From a virus (lineage: Duplodnaviria; Heunggongvirae; Uroviricota; Caudoviricetes): a stretch of 21,533 bases of DNA. Where the stretch lies: IMG/VR virus record IMGVR_UViG_2713897073_000007. The stretch is one strand, 5' to 3'. Shown here piece by piece: positions 1-18,241 of this stretch. Within the stretch, counting starts at the first letter, position 1. Each line of letters starts with the position of its first letter. The notes under the pieces are model-generated. The model did no database searches, was not told the DNA's origin, and saw only the letters and a program-made list of their open reading frames with translations. Position numbers and translations under genes: made by a program.

Positions 1-996
1 TTAACGAACCAGCCAGACCAGCATCAGGATAATCGCGACTAACAGTATCCACAGCGCGGGACGCGTTGCCATATTTTGCAACGTGTCCATCATCGGTGGA
101 AAAGGATTAAGCAGCGGTTGCATAACACGCGGATCAATCCCTTTAACCCGCCGTTGATAAAGCTGATTAAGAATATCCTCGGCCTGGGCAGAAGAAAGCG
201 ATGATTGCGCAGAAAGACCATATTTTTGCTGGATATATGCCGATAACGCCGCCAGTTCACTGGCATCTAAAGGTTGTTTTAGCGTCATCTGTAGTGATTC
301 CAGCGTCGGCGTATTTTGCTGGCTTAGCGTCTGACGCGCCTGTAGCCAGGTCACCAGATGGTTAAACAGTTTCGCTGGAATTAACTCGCCATCTTTCACC
401 CCGGAAAGTTCCAGCATCGATTGCCAGATCTGTTTGCTGGGTTCCCCCGTTGCCGCCGCAAGTTTGGTCACCAGCTGTTTTAGCGCATTGTGCTCCGCCG
501 GTAATAAAGGACGGTCGGTCGCCTCGCGCTGCTGTGGTTGCGGAATAACCATCTTCCCTTCCTGCAACAGGGTGAGAATGGTTTTTAATTGCTCCGGTGA
601 GAGCTGATTCAGCGGCGTCTGACCAAAGTTATGACGGATATAATCCGTGACCGCCTGACGATTATTCCCCAGACGTAAATACTCCCCTAATTGCGCTAAA
701 AGCTGGCGGGCAGAATGGCTTTTTTGCGCGGCCAGCAGACGTTGCGCCAGATTATGCTCAGCGGCAGGGAAGTGACGCGAAAGCAGCGGTGAATCTCCCG
801 ACAGACCAATATCGTGCCTGATACCCGCCCACAGTTCTGCTCTTTGCTGTTGCGTCAGTGAGGTCACTTTCGTCATTAAGCTTTCCAGCGAAGTACGTTG
901 CTGACTGGATAAAGGCTGATTGCCCGTGCCAGACGGCAGATTATCTCCCTGACCTGGTGGTTGCCCAGGAGGAGGGCCGGAAATAGGTTGTATCAT
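1..996 (-). CDS. flk: Flk-like tail-anchored inner-membrane protein (flagellar biosynthesis regulator Flk family); probable host core gene flanking the island
   Basis: 331-aa ORF with Pro/Gln-rich N-terminus (MIQPISGPPPGQPPGQ...) and a single hydrophobic helix at the extreme C-terminus (ALWILLVAIILMLVWLV); size and topology match Flk. Identification is from memory of the family, not a search. Confidence 0.45.
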   Translation of the reverse strand: MIQPISGPPPGQPPGQGDNLPSGTGNQPLSSQQRTSLESLMTKVTSLTQQQRAELWAGIRHDIGLSGDSPLLSRHFPAAEHNLAQRLLAAQKSHSARQLLAQLGEYLRLGNNRQAVTDYIRHNFGQTPLNQLSPEQLKTILTLLQEGKMVIPQPQQREATDRPLLPAEHNALKQLVTKLAAATGEPSKQIWQSMLELSGVKDGELIPAKLFNHLVTWLQARQTLSQQNTPTLESLQMTLKQPLDASELAALSAYIQQKYGLSAQSSLSSAQAEDILNQLYQRRVKGIDPRVMQPLLNPFPPMMDTLQNMATRPALWILLVAIILMLVWLVR

Positions 997-1199
997 TACG
1001 TATCCTTATACCTGAAATCTTCGCAAGTATGCCTGGCCGCGAGATTATGGCACACTTGTCCGGTTAACTCTCGTCTCATACAGGTAACACAAACGTGAAA
1101 ATCCTTGTTGATGAAAAAGATGTTGATTTAACTTTTTGATATAAAAGGATTTGTATCGGCGCATGTCCACGCAGTGACCACATTTTCGAGTTATAGATA

Positions 1200-1231
1200 A
1201 CACAAAGCCCGTTTTCACGGGCTTTGTGTTA
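1200..1231. terminator. Perfect 13-bp inverted repeat hairpin (AACACAAAGCCCG - 6 nt loop - CGGGCTTTGTGTT) just downstream of the minus-strand accessory operon and upstream of flk
   Basis: Read directly from sequence; GC-rich centre with U-rich stem ends; lies 15 nt after the stop at 1246. No clean T-run follows, so terminator function is inferred. Confidence 0.35.
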
Positions 1232-1245
1232 TCTGTGATTGTGGC

Positions 1246-2156
1246 TTAGCCGCATGATTTATACTGTTTCCAGTTACAGGCTTCTTGAAGCGGTTTTAGC
1301 GTGGTTGACAGGCCGTTTAAATTGAAAGTTGCACTTACAGGGCTTTCATTATAAGGGGTTATTTTTGCATACATTTTGTTTGAGTTGGCTAGTTTTCTGA
1401 TGAAGTTAATGTCATTGCCTTTATAAAAAACAGCCTTTGTATCTGTAGATACTAGCCAGTTTCGCTCAACTGCTTTCTGTTTATCAAGGCGATACAGCAT
1501 GCTGGTTTGTTCAAGGCCTAAATATACATCCCAATTAAGAAATACTTCGGTTTTCTTTTCTCGGCAAGCTATAAACAGAGTAGGGGTAACCGCTTCTCCA
1601 AATGGAGTTCTTATATAATCATCACTTTCTAACGATAAAATTACATTTTTCGAATCATCAATTGGCGATGTAGTAATGGATGTGTGCCATTTTCCTGTGT
1701 CTGTGGCTTTCTCTAATTTTGATTTAGATTGCGCAACTTTTTCCTGTGGAAATGGTTTATCGTAGCAGTTTATTCTAGTTTCTTTATCGTTTTCTGCTCG
1801 GCATTTAGATATCTCAGAAAGATTTGGTTGCTGAGCCTCTGTTGTTACTAGCTGTTTCGCTTTAGATTTTGAGCTTACAGGCGGAGTAAATGTTGGAGAA
1901 AAAAACGGTCATAACAAGATAAACGTCTGTCATCATCTTTCTCATCAGGGCATTGATCTCTGCTTTCGAATTTTTCAGCAACTGTCGTTCGAGTCGGTTG
2001 TATTGACTTATCATAACAAGAAAGTCTTTCTTTATTATTTTCTATTGCTCGGCACTGGAGTGATGACTTAAAGTTATTATGCTCAGTTGCTGCGTGAGCA
2101 GGTAGCACACTAATTGATATAAATGATGCACCTATAGAAATAATCATATTTTTCAT
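1246..2156 (-). pseudogene. Secreted Cys-motif repeat protein interrupted by a frameshift at a homopolymer (ORF 1875..2156 carries the signal peptide and two C-x8-9-RLxCYD motifs; the frame open from 1908 down to 1246 carries a third motif and about 220 further codons)
   Basis: N-terminal signal peptide MKNMIISIGASFISISVLPAHA-A. Motifs CRAIENNKERLSCYD, CPDEKDDDRRLSCYD in frame A and CRAENDKETRINCYD in frame B. Frame B has no ATG start of its own before 1500 and opens immediately after a stop at 1909-1911. The A7 run at 1899-1905 (T7 on the coding strand) sits exactly where the frames switch; one extra base would fuse them into an ORF of about 300 aa. Confidence 0.55.
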
Positions 2157-2160
2157 TTTG

Positions 2161-2493
2161 TTATCCCTTTGGTTTAGTAAGAAATACTAAATTTCCGATA
2201 ATGATATTGCAAATAACCCATAAGCCTCCAATAGCAATTAAACCTAAGCCCGTACCAATAACTGTACCGGCTTTTTCGGCATCGGATGTGGCGTTGTTTA
2301 TTATTTCACCCACCTCTCTTAGCCCAACACAAATCGTGTAGATTATAAAAATATTAAATAATATGAAAAAATACTTAATGAGTTCTCCAAAAAATGAACG
2401 TTTAAGTTTTTTCAGTTGTTTGCCACAAGCAGGGCAAGACAATACTGAATCGATCACCTCTTTCTGGCATTCAGGACATTTGATTAATGCCAT
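2161..2493 (-). CDS. Zinc-ribbon membrane protein (N-terminal CPxC...CPxC ribbon followed by two predicted transmembrane helices), AT-rich accessory gene
   Basis: ORF-track ORF 2161..2538; preferred start at the internal Met of MALIKCPECQKE..., which is preceded by AGGAGG at 8-nt spacing. Motifs CPECQ and CPACGK; hydrophobic stretches FFILFNIFIIYTICVGL and LGLIAIGGLWVICNIIIGNLVFL. Ends 4 nt before the downstream gene start at 2156 (operon). Confidence 0.6.
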   Translation of the reverse strand: MALIKCPECQKEVIDSVLSCPACGKQLKKLKRSFFGELIKYFFILFNIFIIYTICVGLREVGEIINNATSDAEKAGTVIGTGLGLIAIGGLWVICNIIIGNLVFLTKPKG

Positions 2494-2640
2494 ATAATCT
2501 GCCTCCTTTGGCTCTCTACTAGCTGACGTTTGTAACAAAACATTTTGATTTTATCAGACTTTTTATTGATATGTGTCAATTGATTAGCTGGTATAGAGTG
2601 AGACAGGATGCCTTATCGACCTTACTCTGGCAACTGATTG

Positions 2641-2660
2641 ACGGGGGATTGCTCCCCCGT
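2641..2660 (-). terminator. Stem-loop ACGGGGGA-TTGC-TCCCCCGT located 10 nt 3' of the hok-like stop; probable 3' structural element or terminator of the hok-like mRNA
   Basis: 8-bp perfect inverted repeat read from sequence; position relative to the toxin ORF matches the structured 3' end known for hok mRNAs. Confidence 0.4.
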
Positions 2661-2670
2661 CGCGGTTTCC

Positions 2671-2811
2671 TTACTGCTTACACTGTAAGAACGCCGCAAA
2701 CTCCGCTCCCCAGAAACTCATCCGTATTTCACACAGCGAACCGTGCAGCATCCAGATGATGAGGATTGCCGTCACGCAGAACGTGATGGCCGTAAGCGAT
2801 TTTTGCGACAT
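2671..2811 (-). CDS. hok: Hok/Gef-family type I toxin, 46 aa (MSQKSLTAITFCVTAILIIWMLHGSLCEIRMSFWGAEFAAFLQCKQ); below the ORF-track length cutoff
   Basis: Hand translation from ATG at 2811-2809 to TAA at 2673-2671, anchored on the ORF-track frames 2729..2941 and 2571..2759. Strong SD AAGGAG 8 nt upstream. N-terminal transmembrane helix followed by the family signature SLCEIR and a C-terminal E-x-AAF-L-x-C motif, as in Hok, Gef and HokA. Confidence 0.7.
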   Translation of the reverse strand: MSQKSLTAITFCVTAILIIWMLHGSLCEIRMSFWGAEFAAFLQCKQ

Positions 2812-2941
2812 AGCACTTGCTCCTTTTCCGGAGAGGCGCTAACCTTTCACTTGTCAAGGTAATGCGGTTAGGGCCTCGGTTAAACAGATATGTTTTCCGG
2901 GGCCTTTCCACATCCGGCCTTCGGGTATTCCCTCCGACCAT
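2729..2941 (-). CDS. mok: mok-like overlapping reading frame (70 aa) that starts upstream of and overlaps the hok-like ORF in another frame
   Basis: ORF-track ORF 2729..2941. The architecture (a roughly 70-codon frame overlapping most of hok, start about 130 nt upstream of the hok ATG) matches hok/mok/sok loci. The sequence itself is low-complexity, so the call rests on architecture. Confidence 0.45.
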   Translation of the reverse strand: MVGGNTRRPDVERPRKTYLFNRGPNRITLTSERLAPLRKRSKCYVAKIAYGHHVLRDGNPHHLDAARFAV

Positions 2942-3001
2942 CAGCCGAAAGGCACCCGCACGTAATCTATCGCTTTTTTGTTACTCCGGCAATTCTGCCT
3001 G

Positions 3002-3262
3002 TTAATCCTGAGGTAAAGGCAAACTCATCTGATTGTTTCCCCTGTGTGAAGCTGGCAGCTCATGCCACGGGATACCTTCTGATGAGTGAACGCCGGAGGC
3101 GTGTTTCGATGTGAATTTATGGAAAGCTTCCAGTGTTGAGAAGCATACGCCGCATTCCAGATTGTTACACTGGTAATACTTTTGCCGCACGGTGTTTGAA
3201 TCATTTTCCGGACGACTGGTGCGGATACGGGCAGATGCGCCACAAAGCGGACAACGGAACAT
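3002..3262 (-). CDS. ogr: Ogr/Delta-family zinc-finger late-gene transcription activator
   Basis: MFRCPLCGASARIRTSR...YYQCNNLECGVCF matches the P2 Ogr pattern MFHCPLC...RTSR...HQCQNVNC as recalled; Cys4 zinc finger; sits directly downstream of gene D as in P2. At 86 aa it is longer than P2 Ogr (72 aa). Confidence 0.85.
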   Translation of the reverse strand: MFRCPLCGASARIRTSRPENDSNTVRQKYYQCNNLECGVCFSTLEAFHKFTSKHASGVHSSEGIPWHELPASHRGNNQMSLPLPQD

Positions 3263-3304: not shown

Positions 3305-4414
3305 TCACTCTGTTTCCGCTATCCATTCCGGGATTTTTGCCTCAAGCTCAAGCTGCGTGGTAAAGCCGCTGTTATCAATGGTGTGCCCGGCTTTTGCAAT
3401 AATCCAGTCCTGATTATCAATCTCGCTTTTAAATCCTGTTACCGTGCCATGCATTTCGGGGTAGAGCTCTGCACGTCCACGCGCCAGCGTGATGGAGAAT
3501 GATGCGGCTCCGCGTTGTAGTTGCTGCCACTTTGCCGCCGCTGCGCGTCTTGCTGCCTGCTCGTTCTGATAAGTCTTGCGTAACACAAACACATTGCCTT
3601 CCGCGCCTTCCATATAATCACCTTCACGGCTGCTGCTTTTCTCCTTTTTGGGTTTTGGCGGTTTACGGCGTTTCACGCTGACTTTTTTCTTTTTCCCGTA
3701 ATTAAGATCAAGCCAGTAGGCGCGTACCCCCGTATACGCCTCGCGGTCAGCAATGCGGAACTGATGGCGATCGCCGCTGCTGCGTGTAATGGCGAACGAG
3801 GGCAACGGCTGGCCCTGTGCGTTCACGCCACCACCTGGCATGATGAATAACAGATTGCCGCTTTTTACCGTGGTGATTGCACCCAGCATTTCCGCCATGC
3901 GCGTAAGGAAGGACATGTCGCTTTCTTCGGTCTGGTCGGCGTGGTCGATTTCGATATCCATCAGCATTTCGCTGATTTGCGGTTTCAGACCATACCGATG
4001 AGCGATGGCGGATACCACACGCTCAACGGTCACATCATGCCAGGACACCTCACGTTTAACGTTAAATTCATCCCAAAAATCTGCGCTTCTGGCTGAAACA
4101 GTCAGCCTGTCCGGCGGTCCTTCGTGAGCGATTTCATCAACAATGTAAGTGCCTTTTTCTGTCAGCGGTTCTCCCTTCCAGCCAATGAGAACCGTCAGGC
4201 GCGCGCCCCGTGGCGGTAGCTGCAACTGACCATCCGCATCATCCAGCGTGATGGTGAGCTGGTCCGCCTCAAATCCCCGGTTGTCGGTCAGTGACAGGCT
4301 CATCAGGCGCTCTGCCACGCCTGACAGCGTTTTACCCTCCGCGAGAATATCAAAATCCGGCATTTTTACGGGGTCTGTGCCCTGACTGAGCAATTGCATG
4401 GTGGTGTCGGTCAT
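3305..4414 (-). CDS. D: P2 gpD-like tail protein (late control gene D family)
   Basis: ORF-track ORF 3305..4546. Protein has the conserved SLSLTDNRGFEADQL block, a central Lys-rich stretch (KKKKVSVKRRKPPKPKKEK) and C-terminal NSGFTTQLEL typical of gpD. Preferred start is the internal Met of MTDTTMQLLSQ (about 4414), preceded by GGGAGGGAG. Confidence 0.85.
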   Translation of the reverse strand: MTDTTMQLLSQGTDPVKMPDFDILAEGKTLSGVAERLMSLSLTDNRGFEADQLTITLDDADGQLQLPPRGARLTVLIGWKGEPLTEKGTYIVDEIAHEGPPDRLTVSARSADFWDEFNVKREVSWHDVTVERVVSAIAHRYGLKPQISEMLMDIEIDHADQTEESDMSFLTRMAEMLGAITTVKSGNLLFIMPGGGVNAQGQPLPSFAITRSSGDRHQFRIADREAYTGVRAYWLDLNYGKKKKVSVKRRKPPKPKKEKSSSREGDYMEGAEGNVFVLRKTYQNEQAARRAAAAKWQQLQRGAASFSITLARGRAELYPEMHGTVTGFKSEIDNQDWIIAKAGHTIDNSGFTTQLELEAKIPEWIAETE

Positions 4415-4571
4415 CTGCTCCCTCCCTGTGCGGCATGGTCGCATGTGCGTGCGGAGGGGGTTACTGCTTTTTGTTGTCGCCGTGGCGAGAGAACGGCGCA
4501 GGGGTGAGATTACGCGCGTGGTGGGTGATGATTGTTGCCGAATCATTTAACGGATACAAGGGGCTGAAGCT

Positions 4572-5756
4572 ATGAGTGAAACTCGTTTTCATGGTGCCCG
4601 TGTTACGGAAAATACCGACCTGGTAACAGCGATTAACGATGTTGATTCCAGCGTTATCGGTATCGTGGCAACGGCGGATGATGCGGACGCGAAGCTGTTC
4701 CCGCTGAACAAGCCCACACTGCTGACCCGCGTCAATGACGTGCTGGGAAAATGCGGGACAACGGGGACGCTTTATCGTGCGCTTAAGGCCATCGCAGACC
4801 AGGTGAGTACAAAGGTGATCGTCGTTCGCGTGGCTGAACACAAAGAAGAAGACGGAAAAACGCAGGATCAACTGGTTATCGGTGGTTCTGAATCTGACGG
4901 CAGCTATACGGGGATGTATGCGCTGCTTGTTGCAGAGCAGGATGAAAGCATCGGATACCGTCCGCGTATTCTGGCCGCGCCGGAGCTGGACACGGAGGCG
5001 GTAACAAAATCCCTGTGCGTGATTGCGGGTAAACTGCGCGCGTTTGTGTATGCCTCATGTCACGGCTGTAACACGATGGCTGAGGCGATTACCTACCGCC
5101 AGAAATTCAACGAACGTGAGGTGATGCTCTTATGGCCGGACTTCATCGCCTACAACCCGAAAAGTGGCAAAAACGAAACGTTCCCCGCGCCTGCCTATGC
5201 GTGCGGCCTTCGTGCGTACATTGACCATGAGCAGGGTTGGCACAAATCGCTGTCCAACGTTCCGGTTAAAAATGTGCTGGGGATGTCCAGGCATGTGTTC
5301 TGGTCGTTGCAGGCCGAAGACAGTGATGCCAACAGCCTCAACAACAAAGAAATCACGACCATTATTCGTCGCAACGGGTTCCGCTTCTGGGGCAACCGCA
5401 CACCGGAAACGAACGCCTACATCTTTGAGGTGTATACCCGAACCGCACAGGTGCTGGCTGATTCAATTGCGGAAGCGCAGTTTGAAACCATCGATAGTCC
5501 ACTGACGCCTGCGAACGTGAAGGATGTTATCAGTGCCATCAGGGCAAAACTGGATTCACTGGTGACTGCCGGGAAACTGATTGGGGCGTCGTGCTGGTAT
5601 GACGTGGTGGATAACAGCACCACGAATTTACGTCAGGGGCGTGTGCGTATTCGCTACAAATATACGCCCGTTCCTCCGCTGGAAGACATGGAGCTTTACC
5701 AGTCGTTTACTGATGAATTCTTTGGTCCCGCATTTGCGGTGCTGGGAGGTGCCTGA
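4572..5756 (+). CDS. FI: Contractile tail sheath protein (P2 gpFI family)
   Basis: 394 aa; N-terminal region ...ADDADAKLFPLNKPTLLT... aligns with recalled P2 FI (...ASDADAETFPLNKPVLIT...); SD AAGGGG upstream; followed immediately by the tube gene. Confidence 0.9.
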   Translation: MSETRFHGARVTENTDLVTAINDVDSSVIGIVATADDADAKLFPLNKPTLLTRVNDVLGKCGTTGTLYRALKAIADQVSTKVIVVRVAEHKEEDGKTQDQLVIGGSESDGSYTGMYALLVAEQDESIGYRPRILAAPELDTEAVTKSLCVIAGKLRAFVYASCHGCNTMAEAITYRQKFNEREVMLLWPDFIAYNPKSGKNETFPAPAYACGLRAYIDHEQGWHKSLSNVPVKNVLGMSRHVFWSLQAEDSDANSLNNKEITTIIRRNGFRFWGNRTPETNAYIFEVYTRTAQVLADSIAEAQFETIDSPLTPANVKDVISAIRAKLDSLVTAGKLIGASCWYDVVDNSTTNLRQGRVRIRYKYTPVPPLEDMELYQSFTDEFFGPAFAVLGGA

Positions 5757-6268
5757 TGGCTGTACCAAAACATCTTCGCTTTTTTACGCTGTTTGTGGAT
5801 GGTGAAAACGAAGTGGGTAAGGTGACGTCCGTCACCCTGCCTAAACTGACGCGCAAAACCGACAGCTACCGGGGTGGTGGCATGATGGGTGCGGTAAGTA
5901 TTGATCTCGGTCTGGACGACTCCGCGCTTGATGCGAGCTTTGTCATGGGGGGCGCAGTTCGTGAGCTGTTCCTTAAGTATGGCGGCACGATTGACGGCAC
6001 GCTACTGCGTTTTGCGGGTGAATACTACACCGATGCAGAAAGCGACCTGTATGAAGTCGAAATGCGCGGACGCGTGACGGAAATTGATATGGGGGAAGCC
6101 AAACAGGGCGAAGCCACATCACACACTTACGCCATTAAAAACACCTACTACAAGCTGAGTGTTAACGATCGTCCGTTGTGGGAGATTGACCTGCTGAACT
6201 TCATTTACCGGAAGGACGGCAAGGACATTGTGCCCGATCGCATCCGTTCCGCGCTTGGGCTTGGCTGA
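5756..6268 (+). CDS. FII: Tail tube protein (P2 gpFII family)
   Basis: 170 aa; start overlaps the FI stop (TGATG); position and size match FII; N-terminal pattern ...FVDGENEVGKVTSVTLPKLTRKTDSYRGGGM resembles recalled P2 FII. Confidence 0.85.
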   Translation: MAVPKHLRFFTLFVDGENEVGKVTSVTLPKLTRKTDSYRGGGMMGAVSIDLGLDDSALDASFVMGGAVRELFLKYGGTIDGTLLRFAGEYYTDAESDLYEVEMRGRVTEIDMGEAKQGEATSHTYAIKNTYYKLSVNDRPLWEIDLLNFIYRKDGKDIVPDRIRSALGLG

Positions 6269-6322
6269 TAAGTAATATGCAGGCGGCGCAGTGCGTCGCC
6301 TCTGACTGAAAGGAGTTTCCTG

Positions 6323-6688
6323 ATGAAAGAGACGAAAAACATCGATACCGAAAACACGGTAGTTGCTGACACTGTGAAAGAAACCAGTGAGCGTGGCGTA
6401 AAACTTACCCAACCAATTGAGCGAGGCGGCGAAAAAATCACGTATGTGGAGATCACCGGGGCTATTGAGCAGGCTGGATCTCTGCGAGATTTGTCGCTGT
6501 CTGATGTGCTGAATCTGAAAGCGGAATCCATGTTTACGCTGCTGTCACGAGTGACATCACCGCGACTGGATGAAGTGACGATCAAAAAAATGGCATCCCG
6601 TGACTTTATTCAGTTATGTGTGGTTGCCGTAAATTTTTTGAGCGGTGCGGACTCTGGCGGGAAGAACGAACAGGCGACGGAAGCCTGA
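6323..6688 (+). CDS. E: Tail assembly chaperone gpE (zero-frame product)
   Basis: 121-aa ORF between the tube and tape-measure genes; contains the T TTT TTG slippery heptamer in frame; synteny with P2 E. Confidence 0.8.
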   Translation: MKETKNIDTENTVVADTVKETSERGVKLTQPIERGGEKITYVEITGAIEQAGSLRDLSLSDVLNLKAESMFTLLSRVTSPRLDEVTIKKMASRDFIQLCVVAVNFLSGADSGGKNEQATEA

Positions 6689-6852
6689 TCACGGTTGTGT
6701 GCTTTGAGCACATAGAAGACTTTGTGGCAGATATTGCCGTTATTTTTAACTGGTCGCCCGCCGAAATCTTCATGATGACGCCCGGCGAAGTGGTTAGCTG
6801 GCGTGAGCGGGCGGCACTTCGCAGCGGGAATGCAGACAATGAAGACTCTTGA
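6323..6852 (+). CDS. E': gpE+E' fusion product made by programmed -1 ribosomal frameshift at 6634-6640
   Basis: ORF-track frame 6616..6852 is -1 relative to E and is closed by a TGA at 6601-6603, so it can only be entered by slippage downstream of that point. The heptamer T TTT TTG at 6634-6640 is in the correct zero-frame register. The E' frame ends by overlapping the tape-measure start. Confidence 0.7.
6634..6640 (+). other. Slippery heptamer T TTT TTG (programmed -1 frameshift site for E/E')
   Basis: Read directly; E-frame codons AAT TTT TTG (N F L), -1 frame codons TTT TTT GAG (F F E), matching both ORF-track translations (VNFLSGADS and KFFERCGLW). Confidence 0.7.
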
Positions 6853-9646
6853 TATCCGGGTCGCTTTCAGCGCCGTTGACAGGCTGACCCAGCCTGCCGA
6901 AAACGCCCGCCGCCTGATGGGGCAGTTTGGTGACTCCATCCAGCGAACGCAGGGGGCGATCAAAAATCTCGAGCGTCAGGCGCGTTCATTTGAGCGCGCC
7001 CGCGACGCTGTCAGTAAAGCGGATGCGGGTATCGTGAAAGCACGACGCCAGCTTAACGCCCTTAATCAGTTACAACGCACGGGTACAGTGCTCAGCGAAA
7101 AACAACAAAAGCTGATGCAGCAGTTAAGCACCCGGCTTGAACGCCTGAATGAATCGCGCACGCGGGAAATTCAGAAAATGCGGGAGCTTGGCGGAGAGCT
7201 GAAACGCCACGGCATTTCCCTGACAGGCAGCGATAACACCATCCAGCAGGCCATCAGACGCACCGAACAGTACAACAATCAGCTTGAACGCGAACGGCAG
7301 GCGCTTGCGCGTGTAACGCGGGCGCGTGAGCGGTATTCGCGCGCGCAGGAAACAGCGGGAAAACTGAAAACAGGTGGTGCACTGGCAATTGGTGCGGCAG
7401 CGGCGGGCGGCTATGCTGCCGGGCGTTTTTTGCAGCCTGCGATCGGGTTCGGGAAAGAGATGTCCCGCGTTCAGGCACTGACGCGAATCGACCAGAACAG
7501 CCCGCAGTTTAAGGCGCTGCGTGAGCAGGCGTTAAAACTTGGCTCTGAAACGCAGTTCACCGCAGGCGATGCCGCCAGTGGGCAGGCATTTCTGGCAATG
7601 GCTGGCTTCACACCGCAGGCCATTCAGGCTGCGCTTCCCGGCGTGCTGAGCATGGCAACGGCTGGCGGTATGGACCTTGGCGAGACGGCAGATATTGGCT
7701 CAAATATCCTGACGCAGTTCGGCCTCTCCGCTGACCAGATGGACCGGGTCGGTGACACGCTTACAGCAGTGTTTACCCGTACTAACACTGACCTTCGCGC
7801 ACTGGGCGAAACCATGAAATATGCAGGTCCGGTGGCGGGTAAGCTGGGAATATCGCTGGAGCAGGCCGCAGCGATGGCGGGCGTGCTGGCGAATATGGGT
7901 ATCAGAGGGAGTGATGCCGGGACGGCAATGCGTGCCAGCCTGGCTCGTCTGGCATCACCGCCAAAGGCGGCAGCAGAAGCGCTGAAAGAGCTGGGTGTGT
8001 CCGTCTCTGATGCGAACGGCAAAATGCGCCCGATGGAAGATGTGCTGGCCGACCTTTATAAAGCCACCCGTAAATACGGGGAAGTTGACCGGGTATCGTT
8101 CTTTAAGGACATTGCCGGGGAAGAGGCTTTCACGTCGTTTATGGCTCTCGTTGATGCGGCGGGTGACGGCTCCCTGCCCAAACTGAGAAAAGAACTTGAG
8201 GGCGCACGCGGTGAGGCTGAACGCACGGCAAAGGTTATGGCCAATAACCTTGATGGCGACCTGAAATCACTCGGCAGTGCATGGGAAGGGCTGCGTATCC
8301 GCATTGCAGATCTGATTGATGGTCCGCTGCGTTCTGTCACGCAGTGGCTCACGCGGGTGGTCTCAAAGGTGACGGCGCTGGCACAGGCCCATCCGGTACT
8401 GACGCGCCAGTTACTGATAGCAGGCGGTGCGCTGCTGGCAATGACTGCAACGGTTGGCTCGTTGTCGCTGGTTATTGGAGTGCTTCACGGGAAGCTGGCC
8501 ACGTTGCGTCTTGGTTTTTCTCTCCTGACCGGATCAATGAATGCTGTCAGGCTCCTGCCAGCACTATGGGGAATGGTGACGGGTTCCGTTTCGTTACTGG
8601 GGGGCGCTATCGGGGCGCTGTTCAGCCCGGTCGGATTGATTGCTGCTGCGTTTGTGGCTGCGGCAGTTCTCATCTGGAAATACTGGGAACCCATCAAGGC
8701 GTTTTATGCCGGGGTGTTCAGCGGGATTATGGAGCGGCTGGCCCCGTTACGCGAAACCTTTGAACGGTTTGGTCCTGTTTTTGACGCAATCGGAAGCGGG
8801 ATAAGTCAGGTGTTTAACTGGTTTAAATCGTTGCTGTCACCGATGGAGTCCAGCAAGGAAACGCTGGATAAATGTACCAGTGCTGGCGAGATATTCGGTA
8901 ACGTTCTTGGCGGTGCGTTACAGCTTGTTCTGACGCCCGCAAAAATGTTGCTGGATACGCTGGCGTGGATACTTGAAAAACTCGGTGTGCTTCCGGATGA
9001 AGCGGAAAGGGCGAGAAAGAAAATCGAAGACGCACAGCGTGCGGCCATTCTTCAGGACAAGGTTGCTCTGTTTCAGGGAGACATTGCGAAAATCAATCCG
9101 CCGAAGTCTGCGGAAAATGGCAATGGCACCGGAGGTGATAAACCCAAAGACAATAAACCGCTCACAGACAGCAATACCGGTACGCTACGCAGACTCAGCA
9201 AAATTGCTGATAACACAGGTAAGCTGGTTGATGAGACGAAAAAACGTATTGGCCCCGGCGATATTGTCTTTAAGAACCTGCCCCGCGCACTTGCCGTTCG
9301 TGGGGAGTGGCAGGAGCGGAAGATTGTGCAGGTCAGTAAGCCTGCCCCCGCAATTAATATCACACCCGTGGTCCCGGCTCCGCTGCCTCCGGCGCTGGTC
9401 CCTGTTGTTGCGGCCAGCTCCCGCCCGGTGGCGGAGGCCATACGATCTCCAGTGGCATCAGTTCCTGTAACTTCCCGTAACCGGGAGCCTGTTGCCTCCG
9501 GATTTGGTGGTGAAATTCATGTTCATCTGCATAACGTTGTTACGCAGAATCCCCGCGAACTGGCGAAACTGGTCGGTGAAATGGTCAGGGCAGAAATGGA
9601 ACGGCGCGCCCGTGCCGGGCGTGGCAGTTTTTACGATAAAGATTGA
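6803..9646 (+). CDS. T: Tail tape measure protein (P2 gpT family)
   Basis: 947-aa ORF; long N-terminal coiled-coil-like region, central hydrophobic segments (LLIAGGALLAMTATVGSLSLVIGVL...), Pro/Ala-rich C-terminus; located between E/E' and U. True start may be the in-frame ATG at 6830 or 6839, overlapping the E' stop. Confidence 0.9.
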   Translation: MSGRHFAAGMQTMKTLDIRVAFSAVDRLTQPAENARRLMGQFGDSIQRTQGAIKNLERQARSFERARDAVSKADAGIVKARRQLNALNQLQRTGTVLSEKQQKLMQQLSTRLERLNESRTREIQKMRELGGELKRHGISLTGSDNTIQQAIRRTEQYNNQLERERQALARVTRARERYSRAQETAGKLKTGGALAIGAAAAGGYAAGRFLQPAIGFGKEMSRVQALTRIDQNSPQFKALREQALKLGSETQFTAGDAASGQAFLAMAGFTPQAIQAALPGVLSMATAGGMDLGETADIGSNILTQFGLSADQMDRVGDTLTAVFTRTNTDLRALGETMKYAGPVAGKLGISLEQAAAMAGVLANMGIRGSDAGTAMRASLARLASPPKAAAEALKELGVSVSDANGKMRPMEDVLADLYKATRKYGEVDRVSFFKDIAGEEAFTSFMALVDAAGDGSLPKLRKELEGARGEAERTAKVMANNLDGDLKSLGSAWEGLRIRIADLIDGPLRSVTQWLTRVVSKVTALAQAHPVLTRQLLIAGGALLAMTATVGSLSLVIGVLHGKLATLRLGFSLLTGSMNAVRLLPALWGMVTGSVSLLGGAIGALFSPVGLIAAAFVAAAVLIWKYWEPIKAFYAGVFSGIMERLAPLRETFERFGPVFDAIGSGISQVFNWFKSLLSPMESSKETLDKCTSAGEIFGNVLGGALQLVLTPAKMLLDTLAWILEKLGVLPDEAERARKKIEDAQRAAILQDKVALFQGDIAKINPPKSAENGNGTGGDKPKDNKPLTDSNTGTLRRLSKIADNTGKLVDETKKRIGPGDIVFKNLPRALAVRGEWQERKIVQVSKPAPAINITPVVPAPLPPALVPVVAASSRPVAEAIRSPVASVPVTSRNREPVASGFGGEIHVHLHNVVTQNPRELAKLVGEMVRAEMERRARAGRGSFYDKD

Positions 9647-9652
9647 GGAGTC

Positions 9653-10147
9653 ATGGCCATGATGATGATCTACGGCATGTTTGTTTTTGAGCTGCGCACG
9701 CTGCCGCATCAGCAGTTACAGCAAAACAAAAGCTGGCGGCATGTGAAAAATGAACGCGTTAACCGTTCAGCAAGCTGGCAGTATATCGGTGCAGGTGATG
9801 ATCGCATCGTTCTTTCTGGTGTGCTTTATCCTGAAATTACAGGTGGCGAAGTGTCGCTGTCGCTGCTGACCACGCAGGCGTATACAGGACGACCCTGGCC
9901 TTTGATTGATGGCGTCGGGCAGATTTACGGCATGTATGTCCTGACCGGAACGAACACGACCCGTTCCGAGTTTGATCGCTACGGTAAGGCGAAAAAGATA
10001 GAATTTTCACTGACCCTTGAACGCTGTGATGAGGATTTGCGGGAGCGCCTGCAATCCTCATCGTTCAGCGATATGCTGTCCGGCTTCAAAGATAAAGTGA
10101 CATCATCCCTTAACAGCGCGGCCAGTTCAGTTAAAGGGCTGTTCTGA
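9653..10147 (+). CDS. U: Tail protein gpU
   Basis: 164 aa directly after T; N-terminal FVFELRTLPHQQLQQNKSWRH and LSGVLYPEITGG resemble recalled P2 U. Confidence 0.8.
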   Translation: MAMMMIYGMFVFELRTLPHQQLQQNKSWRHVKNERVNRSASWQYIGAGDDRIVLSGVLYPEITGGEVSLSLLTTQAYTGRPWPLIDGVGQIYGMYVLTGTNTTRSEFDRYGKAKKIEFSLTLERCDEDLRERLQSSSFSDMLSGFKDKVTSSLNSAASSVKGLF

Positions 10148-10309: not shown

Positions 10310-10795
10310 ATGCTGAATAATAGAGATATGAATATTAATGAACTTAAAGACTGTATTCACTATGAAGTAATCGGTAGCGAGCGTCCTTTCTCCTGGCGAA
10401 AGGCAATTGTTCGCGCAATAAAACATAGAAGACTTCGTTATTTATTTTGGTGGCGCATAGCCAAATACCTTTTTGATAAAGGCGGATACTGCCGGAAGAT
10501 TGCGGGGAAAATAGAACGTTTCATTCTTGATAAATATAATGTAACAGTCCCTTTAACTGTAAATATAGGGAAAGGCTTTGATATTTCTTATCTCAACAGT
10601 GTTGTTATCGGTCACAAAGTAACAATCGGTGAAAATTGTTCAATAAAACCGGGGGTAACTATTGGGCTACGTGGTGATTTTAATGATATGGATATTGTTA
10701 TAGGACATAATGTGACCATTGGTTGTAATGCCACCATTCTTGGTGGCAAAGTGCGTATAGGAAACAATGTCACAATAGGTGCTCATGCATTGGTA
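10310..10795 (+). pseudogene. 3'-truncated hexapeptide-repeat (left-handed beta-helix) acyltransferase, AT-rich cargo gene
   Basis: Tandem hexapeptide repeats VTIGENCSIKPGVTIG / IVIGHNVTIGCNATILGGKVRIGNNVTIGAHALV; the last 23 aa of the ORF (TTTFKNFKESLTITSFFRIVAVK) are the reverse-strand reading of the tail-fibre fragment, so the gene is cut at about 10795. Confidence 0.6.
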
Positions 10796-11290
10796 ACCAC
10801 CACCTTCAAGAACTTCAAGGAGTCCCTGACCATAACTTCCTTCTTCCGGATAGTTGCGGTCAAATGAAGCGATTGAGCCACTACTGTTTCGCCATAAACC
10901 AAGATGCTCTGCGCCTCCGAGCGTGTTCAGGTCAATGGTTGTGCTCAGGGGGCGTGTTGCAGACTGAACCTGACGCCAGTAACTCCACGGACCGTCTGAA
11001 CCATTCCATGTGCCAGAAAGGTTGCGCATATAAACATTGCCTGTTCTGGTGGTGTAACGCTGCATTCCTGCAAAATTACCGCCATTGAATACCTCCAGTA
11101 CACCGACTGCACCGTCTTCAGGGAAATTTTTAGCAGCCGTCGCGTTAGTGGATGTAGCTTTAGACCAGACGCCAAGATAAGCCTTAACGGGACCAAATGT
11201 ATTCAAGTCAGCATCAAGCGGCATTTCGCCATTGTTTTTCATAAACGTCAGGCTGGTAACGCCAACATTGTCCAGAAAAGCGCCCTTATC
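10796..11290 (-). pseudogene. Internal fragment of a phage tail fibre gene (gpH-like), truncated at both ends
   Basis: ORF-track ORF 10667..11242 with its frame open upstream to about 11290. Gly/Asn/Thr/Ser-rich fibre-like sequence (GVLEVFNGGNFAGMQRYTTRTGNVYMRNLSGTWNGSDGPWSYW...GQGLLEVLEGGGY). The final 40 aa are an antisense read of the acyltransferase DNA. Family assignment is by composition and synteny only. Confidence 0.45.
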
Positions 11291-11835
11291 TCCACGCGTT
11301 GCACACCGTGCACATGCAGTGCGGCAGCAATGGCGGACAACGCCACGTCCTGACCGATAAGCCCCTGCTCAGCCAGCCACTTCCTGAACGACGATTCAGC
11401 CGCAGCCAGAATAGGTTCGGATTCCGGGCCGGGATAAAAGTACAGTTTTGCATTCAGCCGCCATGTCACGATTCTGGCGCTCTGTACGGTCAGGCGGTCG
11501 GCCACCGGGCGGGTATCCTCTGCATTCAGAACGGCACGAACGGTATTAAGCAACGCCTCCGTTGCTGTGCCGTCGCCTTCAGTGGACAGGATGGAAACCG
11601 TCACACAGGCCGGAGACGGGCTGATGGCCCGCGCATCACGCACCAGACCGCTGGCGCTGCGTGCAAAATACTCGTATGCACCTGACGGGCCAGCAACACT
11701 CAGGCCGTCGTACGCCCGCTGCGCCCGCAGTCTCAGCGAGGTGTCGCTCTCCATCACCGCGTCGGTGGTATCCGTTGCCGGAGTGATAACCAGGCGCTTT
11801 GTGTTCATATTGCCCGCGAGGTTGTCCAGGTCTGT
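11248..11835 (-). pseudogene. J: Baseplate protein gpJ fragment lacking the N-terminal third and probably the C-terminal end
   Basis: ORF 11248..11886; the segment TKRLVITPATDTTDAVMESDTSLRLRAQRAYDGLSVAGPSGAYEY...SPSPACVTVSILS...RPVADRLTVQSA...YFYPGPESEPI...LHVHGVQRVEI matches recalled P2 J residues from about 100 to 270. The first 17 codons of the ORF are an out-of-frame read of capsid-gene DNA. Confidence 0.65.
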
Positions 11836-12463
11836 CATCCAGCAGGGATGAGCGCGCGTCCTGTACCAGTGCATCAGCGTTCGCATACTTACCCGCGTGC
11901 GCCACTGTGTTGTCCATGTTGCGGGAAGTCAGCGTCACGTCATTCATTACGCGTTCACTGGCATCGGTTCTGATGTGCTCCAGCCAGCCCACGTTAACGT
12001 CCTGAAGCAGCTTGTTGGTGCTGAAATTGGATTTTTCCGCGTGTGATGTGCCGTTAAAGCCGATCATGATGCGGTCAAGCGCCACCTGCCGGGCAATCTG
12101 TGTGCTGATGCGCGACTGAAAATCGCTGTGAGCCGCCCAGGCATCAAGCTTCGGGTATGAAATAAACGTGTCGTAGTTCACCTGTTCACACTGGTACTGA
12201 CGAGCCTTCATATCGACAGCGTTAATCGGATTACGGCGATCTGTGCCGTCATAACTGGTATTCGTGCGCGCAATCGGCCCGGTGGTGTCCAGGAGAACTT
12301 TTTCGCCTTTCTGGTCAGTTACACCGATTACATTAATTCTTTTCGTAAATTCGGTACTTTCCTTTGAAGCGTTTTCAAAACGCTGTTGTACCGATGGATT
12401 GACGGTAAATCGCGATACCAGCGCAGAAACCGGGATATTGTTAAGCGACGCCTGCTGCGTCAT
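11836..12463 (-). pseudogene. N: Major capsid protein gpN fragment (N-terminal about 210 aa)
   Basis: ORF 11636..12463; FTVNPSVQQ...RINVIGVTDQKGEKV...YQCEQVNYDTFISYPKLDAWA...IMIGFNG...LLQDVNVGWLEHIR...ADALVQDA matches recalled P2 N N-terminal region. Homology stops near 11836, after which the frame reads J-fragment DNA. Confidence 0.65.
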
Positions 12464-12508
12464 GTAGCAGCCCAGCTTGTTACGGGCATTAATTACTCAG
12501 GGGGAGCA

Positions 12509-13765
12509 ATGATTCAGGACGCTTTTGTGCGCCAGCGTGCGCGGCAACTTTACTGGCAGGGTTATCCGCCCGCAGAAATATCACGTCTGATGGGAATAAA
12601 CCCGAACACGATTTATGCGTGGAAAAAACGCGACCAGTGGGATGAAACGCCCCCCGTGCAGCGTGTCACGCAGTCCATCGATGCGCGCCTCATCCAGCTT
12701 ACTGAAAAACAGAATAAAACAGGCGGTGACTTTAAGGAAATAGACCTGCTGACCCGGCAGCTTAAAAAGCTGCATGATGGCCAGCCGGATGTGATGGCCG
12801 CAGGAAAGAAAGGCCGGGCGAAAAAACTTAAAAATCATTTCACGCCGGAACAGATTGCCGCACTGCGGGAAAAAATCATCAGCAGGCTGGAGTGGCATCA
12901 GCGGGGCTGGTTTGACTCCCTGACACTTTGCAGGGAAGCCGGGATACGTAACAGGATGATCCTGAAATCCCGACAGATTGGGGCGACCTGGTATTTTGCA
13001 CAGGAAGCTCTGCTGATGGCGCTGCGTGACGATGTGGCGCAACCTTACCAGCGTAACCAGATTTTTTTGTCTGCGTCGCGTCGTCAGGCGTTCCAGTTTA
13101 AAAGCATTATTCAGAAGGTCGCGGCTGAAGTTGATGTGGAGCTGAAAGGGGGCGATAAAATCATCCTCTCCAACGGCGCAGAGCTGCATTTTCTCGGCAC
13201 TTCTGCTGCGTCGGCACAGTCCTATACGGGCAATTTTTATTTTGATGAATTTTTCTGGGTCAGTCGCTTTGCTGAACTGCGCAAGGTGGCTGGCGCTATG
13301 GCAACCCTCAGCGGACTGCGGCGCACCTACTTCTCCACGCCATCCACCGAAACGCACGAGGCGTACGCCTACTGGAACGGCGACCGCTGGAACGAGAAAA
13401 AGGCCTCGCATAAACGCCAGCGTTTTTCTGTGGACTGGAAAACGCTGCATAACGGGCTTATCTGCCCTGACCGGACTTGGCGGCAAATTGTCACGCTGGA
13501 AGATGTGGTTAATCACGGCTGGAAACACACCGATATCGACGAAATTCGTGATGAAAACACCGAAGACGAGTTCCTCAATCTCTATATGTGTGAGTTTGTC
13601 CGCGAAGGGGAATCGGCATTTAACCTGAATATCCTGATTGGCTGCGGTGTTGACGGATACGACGACTGGAAAGACTGGAAACCTTTTGCTCCCCGCCCGA
13701 TGGGGAATCGTCCGGTATGGATTGGGTATGACGCAAACGGCAGCAGTGGCAACGGCGACACCGTG
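12509..13765 (+). pseudogene. P: Terminase ATPase (large) subunit, P2 gpP family, 3'-truncated
   Basis: ORF 12386..13840; preferred start MIQDAF at 12509 with SD GGGGGAG; Walker-A-like KSRQIGATWYFAQEA; the last roughly 25 aa (RMPYQRRPSRFSFLRTAAKNELTR) are an antisense read of the gpA fragment. Family size is about 590 aa, so roughly 170 C-terminal residues are missing. Confidence 0.7.
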
Positions 13766-15042
13766 CGGATGCCATACCAGCGCAGGCCGTCGCGGTTCAG
13801 TTTCTTGCGGACCGCCGCAAAAAACGAGTTAACCAGGTAATCGCTGGAGTCGCGCATAGTGGCCCCGTTCCATTTGGGATTCGGATGACCGTTCTCCGTT
13901 GTTGCGTGGTATTTTGACGGGCAGGTGACAGTCAGAAACACCGCTCTGTCGCCACGGGCTTCGGCCAGAAGTTCCAGCCCCTTCATGGTGGCCATCATTT
14001 CTGCCTTACGGTGAACCGGGTTACTTACTCCCGCGTAATACACTGTCTCAAGATCAATCGTGAACCCGTCTTCGTTTTCCAGCATGAAACTTTTCAGGAA
14101 ATCGCGTGTTTTCTCGCGCTGTGCGCGAAACTCGCTTAACGCATCCTGGCTCAGATAGGGCGATGTTTTTCTGGAAACCAGACAGGCGGCGCGGAGTTGT
14201 TCTTCTCTCCACTCGCAACGTAACAGCCACAGTTTGCGTTTCCACCATTCCGCACAGGTCAGGCGAAGGATTGCGCCCGGCAGCAGCTCCGTGTCTGGTT
14301 CGTTCCTCCGGCCTTTGTCTGTTGTCAGTGCGTCATAATGCGGAGGCATGGCGTGCAGGTGTAACGCCATGCGGGCCAGCATCTGATACGCCTTCAGCGT
14401 TACATCCATGGTCAGCTCGCCATCAGTCGCACCAAAGCCATCGCAGAGTTTTTCGAAGGTGCTGCTGAACATCGCCGCCGTCATGGTGGCCAGCGTCTGT
14501 ATCTGGTGTTTGTTGAGCTGCGGCAGGTAAAGCAAATCGTCCAGGCGTTCGCGTCCGGCAAGGGAGCGATAACCCGGTGTCAGCCAGTGTCCGTCAGTGC
14601 GATCCAGACGTTCGAATATTTTGCGCAGGGTTCCGCGTGCATAGCGTTCTGCCTGCCAGCTCTTTTTGCCTTTCCGGCGATCGACTTCCTGTTTTTTGCG
14701 CAGGAAGGAGAGGTGGCGAATAAGCGGATCGCGCAGATAGGACGGCAGCAGGCGCAGCGAGGCCATGGCTTCATCCACCGCGCCGCGTGCCTGTCTTCTG
14801 GCGTCTCCTGCCAGCGTGATGGTTTTGTCCTGTTTTTCCTGTGCGTCCAGGCTTTTATTAATCAGGTTGCCCAGTGGCGTGGCAGAGAACGCCGCATCAG
14901 CCTTTTCCTGTCGGCGCTCGTTCTCTGCCTGGTAGGCATCCAGCCAGGAGGAAAGCGCGGATTCAGGTGCGGGGATCCCCGTTCCTTCACGCCCCACTGC
15001 GTGGCGCGGTTGTTGCCAGTCCCTGATGTACTCTGTCGTCAT
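13759..15042 (-). pseudogene. A: Replication initiation protein gpA family (rolling-circle initiator), 3'-truncated after about 428 aa
   Basis: ORF 13582..15042 directly downstream of the early operon; sequence up to ...GLRWYGIRTV is protein-like, the following 58 aa are Pro/Ser-rich antisense of terminase DNA. P2 A is about 760 aa. Convergent with the P fragment. Confidence 0.65.
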
Positions 15043-15048
15043 ACTGAT

Positions 15049-15414: not shown

Positions 15415-15486
15415 TGCGGCAATCCTCTTGTTACAGATGTGCGAAGGCCTCCTGCCGCAAGGTGCAGGAAAGGCCCGGAACAGGAA

Positions 15487-15717: not shown

Positions 15718-15896
15718 GGTGTGGCCTCTTTGGTTGTAAGTTTTGAAAACTCACCATCCAGAGCTGCGAAACTGTGGGTGGCGAGACGTACGGGGTTCGC
15801 AGTACCGGCAACCAAAGAACCCGGCCCGACCGAAGTCGGCCCCGTACGCCCCGCCATAATTCTGACGCGAAAAAAACGTGGCAATACAGTACGCAC

Positions 15897-16078: not shown

Positions 16079-16084
16079 GTGTCA

Positions 16085-17115: not shown

Positions 17116-17126
17116 ATCGCGGTCCT

Positions 17127-18206: not shown

Positions 18207-18241
18207 GTTTTCTTATTTAATCGTGTGTTTTATTTGTGCTG

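Follow-up and report, generated by a model that had tools for sequence, protein, structure and literature searches.

Intact tail genes in a P88-like prophage remnant of an enterotoxigenic Escherichia coli clone as probable leftovers of piecemeal deletion

The flk–pdxB interval of E. coli carries, in the 21,533-nucleotide stretch analysed here (IMG/VR record IMGVR_UViG_2713897073_000007; hereafter the window), the remnant of a P88-like prophage (Xuanwuvirus, P2 family) in which an uninterrupted block of tail genes survives. These genes are very probably leftovers, not yet struck, of a prophage undergoing piecemeal deletion in one enterotoxigenic E. coli (ETEC) clone, and broken copies in sister strains point to ordinary prophage decay rather than to a weapon that has been kept. 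The late tail operon (FI, FII, E/E+E′, T, and U), together with the divergent genes D and ogr, would have been stranded between flk and pdxB while serial short-microhomology deletions and insertion sequence (IS) insertions eroded the remainder. The tail genes would thus be intact for reasons other than use: there has been too little time for point mutations, and the small number of deletions to date struck the central morphogenesis and replication part. The phenomenon is ordinary and already known, namely textbook stepwise prophage erosion, and the sister genomes are annotated in this way in RefSeq.

Identity, site, and host of the element

The window aligns with phages P884B11, PhiR44_2, and phiSM over 81–83% of its length at 94.5–95.6% nucleotide identity, and with P88 over 71% at 95.7%. 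Its gene order and orientation are those of the P88 annotation, and intact prophages (L003 and L004) occupy the same flk–pdxB site. The host is an ETEC clone that includes the lineage L2 reference E1649 (ST4, O6). Over the parts in common, the identity to these members of the Peduoviridae (P88, P884B11, PhiR44_2, and Citrobacter phiSM) is 95–96%, and the E/E+E′ slippery site, the early region, cox, C, and the integrase are shared. In P88 and its relatives the block U-T-E′-E-FII-FI is likewise inverted relative to D/ogr; an origin of this inversion by rearrangement within the remnant was considered and rejected, since P88 has the same orientation. The window differs from the P88 group in the loss of about 15.7 kb (fibre, baseplate, tail completion, lysis, head completion, small terminase, scaffold, and portal genes), and its capsid, large terminase, and replication genes are only partial. 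Another difference is the hexapeptide acetyltransferase gene, in whose place P88 has a DNA invertase and a second, oppositely oriented pair of fibre and fibre-assembly genes. The left part of the window, up to the end of the tail block, is organised as follows.

1–996, minus strand: flk, host gene and left chromosomal flank (RefSeq annotation of identical sequence in F5656C1 and others)
1246–2811, minus strand: left-end cargo (annotation), also present in intact L003 and L004
1246–1812, minus strand: VasI/TagO-like protein of the cargo (Pfam VasI match)
1875–2156, minus strand: hypothetical protein of the cargo (annotation)
2161–2493, minus strand: zinc-ribbon protein of the cargo (annotation)
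2671–2811, minus strand: Hok/Gef toxin of the cargo (annotation)
3002–3262, minus strand: ogr, late-gene activator (Ogr/Delta zinc finger), intact (Pfam PF04606; one amino acid differs from L003)
3305–4414, minus strand: gpD baseplate hub (Phage_GPD), intact, 369 aa (P88 gp51 alignment; Pfam PF05954)
4415–4571: divergent D/FI intergenic region (late promoters), near-identical to P88
4572–5756, plus strand: FI tail sheath, intact, 394 aa (length comparison, Pfam)
5756–6268, plus strand: FII tail tube, intact, 170 aa (length comparison, Pfam)
6323–6688, plus strand: E chaperone (length comparison), the E+E′ tape-measure chaperone extending to 6852
6839–9646, plus strand: T tape-measure protein, intact, 935 aa (length comparison, Pfam PhageMin_Tail)
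9659–10147, plus strand: gpU tail protein, intact, 162 aa, in frame with T (Pfam GpU)

The intact tail block

The products of FI, FII, E, T, and U have the lengths found in P88 and in the intact same-site prophage, and no internal stops occur. A slippery TTTTTTG lies at 6636–6642, and the −1 frame of E+E′ is open to 6852. The original prediction placed intact sheath, tube, chaperone, tape-measure, and U/D genes at 4572–10147; all of them are full length, but gpD lies outside this interval, at 3305–4414 on the minus strand. PGAP calls a gpD of 266 aa in several records, and a truncation of the gene was rejected on the grounds that the 369-aa open reading frame matches P88 gp51 end to end; newer records annotate it at full length. 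With regard to expression, the 4415–4571 region contains no sigma-70-like consensus promoter. By analogy with P2, the D/FI late promoters would depend on Ogr; inspection of the region by eye for a canonical TGT-N12-ACA Ogr site revealed only an imperfect dyad, TGTCGCC-GT-GGCGAGA, around 4474–4490. With A truncated and C intact, P2 biology suggests that the late operon, which needs an activator, probably stays silent unless a P2/P4-type element enters the cell and activates it.

Deletions and truncated genes

Mapping against the near-isogenic prophage of strain FDAARGOS_1077 showed that five microhomology deletions, with junction overlaps of 2–9 bp, took out about 15.7 kb.

Deletion 1, 2,164 bp: acetyltransferase 3′ end, fibre assembly, and fibre 3′ part
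Deletion 2, 1,272 bp: fibre 5′ part, I, and J 3′ end
Deletion of 5,556 bp: J 5′ part through W, V, S, R, lysis, X, L, and M into N
Deletion of 1,015 bp: N start, O, and O/P promoter region
Deletion of 5,718 bp: P 3′ part, Q, DUF3800, parM module, and A 3′ part

The genes and fragments that remain to the right of the tail block are the following.

10328–10867, plus strand: hexapeptide-repeat (serine) acetyltransferase cargo gene, last ~78 bp replaced at the deletion 1 junction (10793–10795)
10793–11291, minus strand: tail-fibre H internal fragment, 499 bp, between deletions 1 and 2 (annotated pseudogene)
11286–11836, minus strand: baseplate J internal fragment, 551 bp, its right edge being the 5,556-bp deletion junction (11835/11836)
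11835–12491, minus strand: major capsid N fragment, 657 bp, without its first 20 bp and 3′ part
12490–13766, plus strand: large terminase P, 5′ 1.26 kb, its O/P promoter region lost to the 1,015-bp deletion
13759–15042, minus strand: replication endonuclease A, 5′ 1.28 kb, joined to P by the 5,718-bp deletion
15049–19998, minus strand: early region of undisrupted small open reading frames
15774–15971, minus strand: C4 antisense RNA and isrK (early region)
16085–16915, minus strand: SPFH/Band-7 protein (early region)
19711–19998, minus strand: cox (early region)
20112–20432, plus strand: C repressor, intact
20529–21533, plus strand: integrase, intact, its stop codon being the end of the window

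The gene set of a functional prophage is therefore incomplete, H, J, N, P, and A being fragments and G, I, W, V, S, R, the lysis genes, X, L, M, O, and Q being absent from the window. The description of the prophage as otherwise gutted holds for the capsid, terminase, replication, baseplate, and fibre genes, which are truncated or lost, but it is overstated: the 7.8-kb early/lysogeny region (13759–21533), ogr, and the left-end cargo are undisrupted and collinear with intact relatives.

Age of the deletions and ongoing decay in sister strains

The proposal that the deletions are very recent is supported by the near-complete 37-kb copy at the same site in FDAARGOS_1077: over 21.5 kb, 5 substitutions and 1 indel separate it from the window. 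Among 5,426 complete E. coli genomes, the terminase/replication (P/A) junction is present in nine, including the ETEC lineage L2 reference; these nine have a mutual identity of 100% or 99.99%, with 5 SNPs in 27 kb. Roughly 4–5 deletions and 2 IS insertions have accumulated in the same interval as 5–6 substitutions per 21–27 kb. The result is a decay series at about 100% identity, composed of the near-complete copy, a remnant with four deletions, and four additional private lesions.

Several members of the clone carry private extra lesions, which indicates that decay is still under way. In FMU073332 an IS30 is inserted in D, in E1649 and E1624 an IS1 lies inside the acetyltransferase gene, and 99-3165 has a private 1,406-bp deletion in L-M-N. 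In E70, the stop codon of T has changed from TGA to TTA, giving a T-U fusion of 1,102 aa, and E66 carries the missense change A188T in T. Finally, the R114W change in gpD (SNP at 4075), polarised with L003, L004, and P88, is derived on the stem of the clone.

Placement of the deletions and a second remnant in O157:H7

The survival of the tail block is not more than chance would give: when five deletions of the observed sizes were placed at random, FI-U was missed in 25% of trials and D-U in 22%. On the other hand, all five deletions lie inside the central 18.7 kb, between the acetyltransferase gene and gene A, and missing both the tail and the early blocks has P = 0.03–0.09 under uniform placement, so that the placement is probably not fully random.

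An independent P88-like remnant is found in O157:H7 at yecA/leuZ, an integration site different from that of the window; we take it to be CP-933T in EDL933 and Sp13 in Sakai. Like the window, this remnant, which is common to at least 245 genomes, has kept FI-FII-E-T-U, the acetyltransferase gene, the early region, and the integrase, its baseplate, lysis, and head genes being lost; two independent remnants, in the ETEC clone and in O157:H7, thus keep the same tail block. It differs in that the loss is IS-associated, with one large gap from the fibre-assembly gene to parM, in that a frameshift ends T at codon 697 and IS30 truncates D, and in that A and parM are intact. In E. coli as a whole, carriers of the tail block (1,365) outnumber those of the head block (1,085) and the baseplate block (1,034). 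Widespread tail-only retention was rejected as the reason for this excess, which is mostly the one O157:H7 clone; the other carriers of the tail block are mostly whole prophages or belong to that clone.

Published surveys have described a similar pattern. According to Bobay et al. 2014, as cited in Khan & Wahl 2020 (PMC7744054), lysis, terminase, portal, and plate genes are preferentially lost from incomplete prophages, in which tail and integrase genes are enriched. The window agrees with the surveys of cryptic prophages as cited there, terminase, portal, lysis, capsid, and plate genes having been lost and tail and integrase genes left. Those surveys are statistical, whereas here a stepwise series is seen among near-identical genomes, with no sign of purifying selection on the tail genes.

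Such observations raise the possibility, tentative at present, that the tail genes are bystanders of biased deletion. Selection would favour the loss of harmful central functions (lysis, packaging, and replication) and would act against deletions extending into the ends, namely C and the integrase on one side and hok, other cargo, and flk on the other; the tail operon, at the far end by ogr and hok, would survive longer without being useful itself. The two ends missed by all five deletions in the window are the same two that the O157:H7 remnant kept after losing the same central part, the surveys just cited point in the same direction, and the hok toxin gene is located about 500 bp past D. Nevertheless, the independent remnants number only two, and neighbouring deletions may be single complex events, which would weaken the clustering statistic. 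In addition, an Rfam scan found no sok antisense RNA beside hok at the gathering threshold, and the acetyltransferase gene by U, clipped in the window and IS1-disrupted in two strains, is not obviously a protected flank. Biased deletion would complement the explanation by piecemeal decay and does not exclude it.

The window-specific deletion

The 5,556-bp baseplate-to-capsid (J-to-N) junction of the window occurs in none of the 5,426 complete E. coli genomes, two open reading frames spanning it have no record in the assembly index, and all nine sisters have the 5.5 kb concerned (99-3165 less the 1,406 bp removed by its own deletion). Collapse of the region during assembly, or a change in one isolate during laboratory passage, could account for these facts, but it is unlikely, since the junction has a 2-bp microhomology and resembles the other four, no flanking repeat is present that would let an assembler collapse the region, and the private deletion of 99-3165 in the same region indicates that such events are natural. 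The conclusion on the tail block is in any case independent of this deletion.

Selection on the tail genes and functional retention

If the tail genes were kept for their function, they should be hit less often than the rest of the element. Three of the nine post-remnant events fall in tail genes, which make up 25.7% of the length, a comparison resting on a small sample (9 events, 10 genomes), and a deficit of disruptive mutations was not found. Phage-like constraint (omega 0.12) predicts 0.21 tail-gene events versus the 3 observed (rough P = 0.001). Weak selection on the tail genes may be compatible with counts as small as these, and no lesions inside FI, FII, E, or U were seen in the ETEC clone or in O157:H7. 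The suggestion of a tail block kept for some reason finds no support, its genes having been struck as often as the rest of the remnant in sister strains (IS30 in D, stop loss and A188T in T, and R114W in D).

The ratio dN/dS does not discriminate between the two situations. Nei-Gojobori estimates for the tail genes against the intact prophage, P88, and the O157 remnant were 0.0–0.3 (with an outlier of 0.97 for E versus P88, from 4 differences only), and the dead fragments of J, N, P, and A gave 0.10–0.20. The comparison with intact relatives, proposed earlier as a check, thus returned equally low values, about 0.1–0.2, for intact genes and for dead fragments, because the divergence being measured is older than the decay.

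Domestication of the sheath, tube, chaperones, tape measure, U, D, and ogr is accordingly very unlikely, whether as a reservoir that could be activated in trans for incoming P2-like phages or satellites or as a tailocin-like particle with baseplate or fibre genes elsewhere. In its favour, no damage is seen in the six or seven genes, in the frameshift site, or in ogr, the O157:H7 remnant has kept this block as well, and 99-3165, E70, and E143 have more P2-like sequences elsewhere in the genome. Against this stand the absence of any depletion of events in the tail genes, the disruption of D by IS30 in both FMU073332 and O157:H7, and the state of T, which has a frameshift in O157:H7 and runs on into U in E70. 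The remnant is also limited to one young clone: vertical conservation across diverged lineages is not seen, the nine genomes with the remnant junction (of 5,426) all being near-identical. At the megablast level, no part of the window matches F5656C1 a second time, and no second P or A gene is present in F5656C1, FMU073332, E1649, E66, E272, or E1624. Furthermore, tail genes would arrive with any second P2-like prophage, as in 99-3165, where the tail block is found in two places.

A self-sufficient tailocin had been considered unlikely, and the gene content agrees. The R-type tailocins, such as the Pseudomonas R-pyocin, a P2-tail derivative, resemble the window in their homologous sheath, tube, chaperone, tape-measure, U, and D genes and in lacking a functional head module, and the sheath, tube, tape measure, chaperones, and hub are indeed all present here. 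However, tailocins are conserved throughout a species and retain a full baseplate (V, W, J, and I), fibres together with a fibre chaperone, a cassette for lysis, and regulators of their own, whereas in the window such genes have been lost or survive as fragments and the element is restricted to a single young clone. V, W, I, G, R, S, and X are missing, J and H are reduced to 551 bp and 499 bp, and the holin, endolysin, and Rz-like genes lay inside the 5,556-bp deletion. In the absence of baseplate, spike, fibre, tail-completion, and lysis genes, neither a tail nor a tailocin can be assembled from these six or seven proteins. It is also very unlikely that the FI-U operon, D, and ogr form a preferentially retained module of P88-like remnants, activatable in trans by Ogr or Delta of incoming P2/P4-type elements; such a module, if real, would supply spare tail genes to superinfecting phages, by complementation or by rescue through recombination, or would alternatively be a decoy on which their late activator is wasted.

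Significance

Piecemeal decay of a P88-like prophage, as the preferred explanation of the intact tail genes, has little significance as a discovery and a modest value as a worked example of decay. The case shows that dN/dS against intact relatives is the wrong test for genes that have been stranded recently, and the order and rate of decay can be read directly from the series of near-identical genomes.

Identity of the element and its surviving genes

A megablast search of 5,426 complete E. coli genomes identified the window as the chromosomal interval running from flk to just short of pdxB, in which a P2-family prophage remnant resides. Several strains are 100% identical to the window, and at least some of these are known enterotoxigenic E. 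coli (ETEC). One of them, L2_E1649, serves as the published ETEC L2 lineage reference (phylogroup A, ST4, O6; CS2+CS3+CS21, LT+STh; isolated in 1997; PMC8085198). In the phage collection, Xuanwuvirus P884B11, PhiR44_2 and Citrobacter phiSM align to 81–83% of the window at 94.5–95.6% identity, and phage P88 to 71% at 95.7%. As in the window, P88 carries ogr and D on one strand and FI-FII-E-E'-T-U on the opposite one, whereas the layout of P2 itself is different; the P88 annotation thereby shows this layout to be native to the genus. A rearrangement of the remnant as the origin of the FI-U orientation is rejected, the P88 annotation having the same arrangement. The tail genes are as follows:

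3305-4414, minus strand, gpD, hub, 369 aa
4572-5756, FI, sheath
5756-6268, FII, tube
6323-6688, E, chaperone
6839-9646, T, tape measure
9659-10147, U, tail protein

The original prediction of uninterrupted tail genes in 4572-10147 was borne out, given that FI, FII, E, T and U each have the length seen in P88 and in the intact prophage of RIVM_C037166 at the same site, and no internal stop was found in any of these five genes. A P2-type slippery heptamer (TTTTTTG, 6636-6642) is followed by a -1 frame open on to 6852, which still allows synthesis of the E+E' chaperone. Pfam domains for sheath, tube FII, PhageMin_Tail, GpU, GPD and Ogr scored over the curated cut-offs. A 34-nt segment in the E'/T overlap (6774-6807) matches at 100% a CRISPR-annotated feature of E. 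coli GmM066 (NZ_CM183652.1) and is probably a spacer directed at the tail module. The D gene, which had been counted within the same stretch, lies outside it. Its product aligns over the whole length with P88 gp51, two substitutions and an in-frame insertion of 3 aa being the only differences, and equals in length gpD of the intact RIVM_C037166 prophage. RefSeq calls gpD inconsistently (our loci L001, L003 and L004 versus L008-L012): older PGAP runs give 266 aa plus a spurious opposite-strand pseudogene, intact prophages included, and newer ones a full-length "late control D" protein of 369 aa.

The description of the prophage as otherwise gutted went too far. No disruption affects the 7.8-kb early/lysogeny region (13759-21533), ogr or the left-end cargo, all of which are collinear with intact relatives; the genes for the C repressor and Cox are intact, and gene A is cut short. 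The genes of the window have been shown to encode the whole P2-type set of tail-shaft and hub proteins, together with Ogr, the late activator. The left-end cargo (1246-2811), identical in kind in intact relatives at the flk-pdxB site, encodes VasI/TagO-like (type VI secretion-associated), hypothetical, zinc-ribbon and Hok/Gef toxin proteins; no sok RNA was found at the Rfam gathering score. Within the early region, a C4 antisense RNA (87 bits) beside isrK (66 bits) at 15774-15971 (minus strand) adjoins a "derepression protein" and a truncated ash-family gene, and looks like a P1/P7-type antisense immunity module. An SPFH/Band-7 domain protein (16085-16915, minus strand), intact in all clone members, is encoded among the early genes here and in P88, whose record labels it lipoprotein/serine protease.

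Five deletions and the age of the remnant

Deletions were mapped against the best reference, the nearly complete 37-kb copy of FDAARGOS_1077 at the same site:

10793-10795, deletion 1, 2,164 bp: acetyltransferase 3' end, fibre assembly, fibre H 3' part
11286-11291, deletion 2, 1,272 bp: H 5' part, I, J 3' end
11835-11836, deletion 3, 5,556 bp: J 5' part, W, V, S, R, lysis, X, L, M, N 3' part
12490-12491, deletion 4, 1,015 bp: N start, O, O/P promoter region
13759-13766, deletion 5, 5,718 bp: P 3' part, Q, DUF3800, parM module, A 3' part

This map confirms the truncations noted earlier in capsid, terminase, replication, baseplate and fibre genes. An overlap of 2–9 bp at all five junctions points to microhomology-mediated deletion. 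Since V, W, I, G, R, S, X and the lysis genes are missing from the window, a self-sufficient tailocin, already considered unlikely, is excluded. Gene A of FDAARGOS_1077 (29407-31788 of that locus) has itself lost ~340 bp near its 3' end (820 aa versus 940 in P88), and this progenitor-like copy may be replication-defective; deletion 5 spans the site of that loss, which may have preceded the remnant. The N fragment (11835-12491) is 100% identical to FDAARGOS_1077 and 89–92% to P88 and RIVM_C037166, with flanking segments at 97–98%; it is a mosaic capsid allele in a group of phages that are otherwise closely related. Between U and the fibre genes, in the position of the P88 DNA invertase, there is a cargo gene for a hexapeptide-repeat (serine) acetyltransferase (10328-10867); in the window a deletion junction takes the place of its 3' end, and the E1649 and E1624 copies are split by IS1.

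The deletions proved as recent as had been suggested: over the 21.5 kb shared with FDAARGOS_1077 there are five substitutions and one single-base indel, and the P/A junction occurs in only nine of the 5,426 genomes (F5656C1, FMU073332, 99-3165, L2_E1649, E143, E66, E70, E272 and E1624). These sisters come from the USA, Mexico, Indonesia, Bangladesh and Japan, and five SNPs in total separate their 27,090-bp remnants. By the mutational clock the remnant is young, yet old enough to have spread worldwide with its clone. Only the window has the 5,556-bp J-to-N deletion: its junction occurs in none of the 5,426 complete genomes, and two ORFs spanning it have no record in the assembly index. In its place, all nine sisters retain W, V, S, R, the lysis genes and X, and eight also L and M, 99-3165 having lost M and part of L by its own deletion.

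Test for selection on the tail block

The sisters record the changes since the four-deletion remnant arose, and nine independent events were counted:

1, IS30 insertion in D, FMU073332
2, IS1 insertion in the acetyltransferase gene, common to E1649 and E1624
3, 1,406-bp L-M-N deletion, 99-3165
4, 5,556-bp deletion, window
5, T A188T, E66
6, T stop codon TGA>TTA (window 9644-9646; 9645 in the E70 locus), E70
7, S missense, 99-3165
8, endolysin synonymous change, 99-3165
9, C repressor missense, E272

T and U share one reading frame, and the single change in E70 creates a 1,102-aa T-U fusion ORF; PGAP flags this T as a pseudogene. Tail genes, 25.7% of the prophage length, took three of the nine events and show no depletion. 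At an omega of ~0.12 (living-phage constraint), ~0.21 protein-altering events would be expected against the three observed (rough Poisson P = 0.001). The only tail-gene substitution polarisable to the clone's stem, R114W in D, is a radical change. The proposal that the tail block is retained for a reason found no support. The evidence points towards neutral decay; with counts this small, weak selection may still be acting.

The proposed dN/dS check (Nei-Gojobori, against RIVM_C037166, P88 and the O157 remnant) was carried out and did not discriminate. Values for tail genes were mostly 0.0–0.3, with 0.10–0.14 for T, the sole tail gene with many differences, and were similarly low (0.10–0.20) for the dead J, N, P and A fragments; all that divergence arose while the phages were alive, so the ratio cannot show whether a gene is being retained or was only recently stranded.

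When five deletions of the observed sizes were placed at random on the 36-kb prophage, 25% of trials left FI-U untouched and 22% left D-U untouched. The tail and early blocks were both missed in only 3–9%, and some non-randomness of placement is therefore likely; it may come from selection against lysis, packaging and replication genes, from protection of the immunity end, or from linked events. On this tentative rival reading, the tail genes were spared as bystanders and need have no function.

Comparison with other prophages and expected expression

Complete blocks were counted across the E. coli genomes:

FI-U tail block, 1,365 genomes
N-O-P-Q head block, 1,085 genomes
I-to-L baseplate/lysis block, 1,034 genomes

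The excess of ~300 tail-block carriers is largely one clone, O157:H7, in which an independent P88-like remnant adjoins yecA (diagnostic junction in at least 245 genomes). This remnant keeps FI, FII, E, U, the acetyltransferase, the early region and integrase, and lacks fibre, baseplate, lysis and head genes. Its T is frameshifted (stop at codon 697 of 935) and its D is cut by IS30; this older remnant thus keeps the block physically while degenerating, which fits persistence without function. Its acetyltransferase is the same cargo gene as in the window. The IS30 insertion in D lies at the identical nucleotide position in ETEC FMU073332 (window about 4147-4151; 4152-5370 in the FMU073332 locus, 15423-15577 in the O157:H7 one), with a common right junction, ...GAATCTACA|AGTGCCTTTTTCTG, which suggests a target hot spot or exchange between remnants.

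P2 late promoters require Ogr (or a satellite's Delta), and P2 late transcription is normally tied to phage replication. No sigma-70-like promoter was found in the 157-bp divergent D/FI intergenic region. On this knowledge of P2, the remnant's late tail operon should be silent unless activated in trans, and its expression without a baseplate would yield at most aberrant polysheaths or polytubes. The overall pattern of loss and retention agrees with what published surveys found for incomplete prophages: loss of terminase, portal, lysis, capsid and plate genes, and persistence of tail and integrase genes (PMC7744054). The observation of intact tail genes is real, and it represents an ordinary case of prophage erosion, which the RefSeq annotation already reflects.
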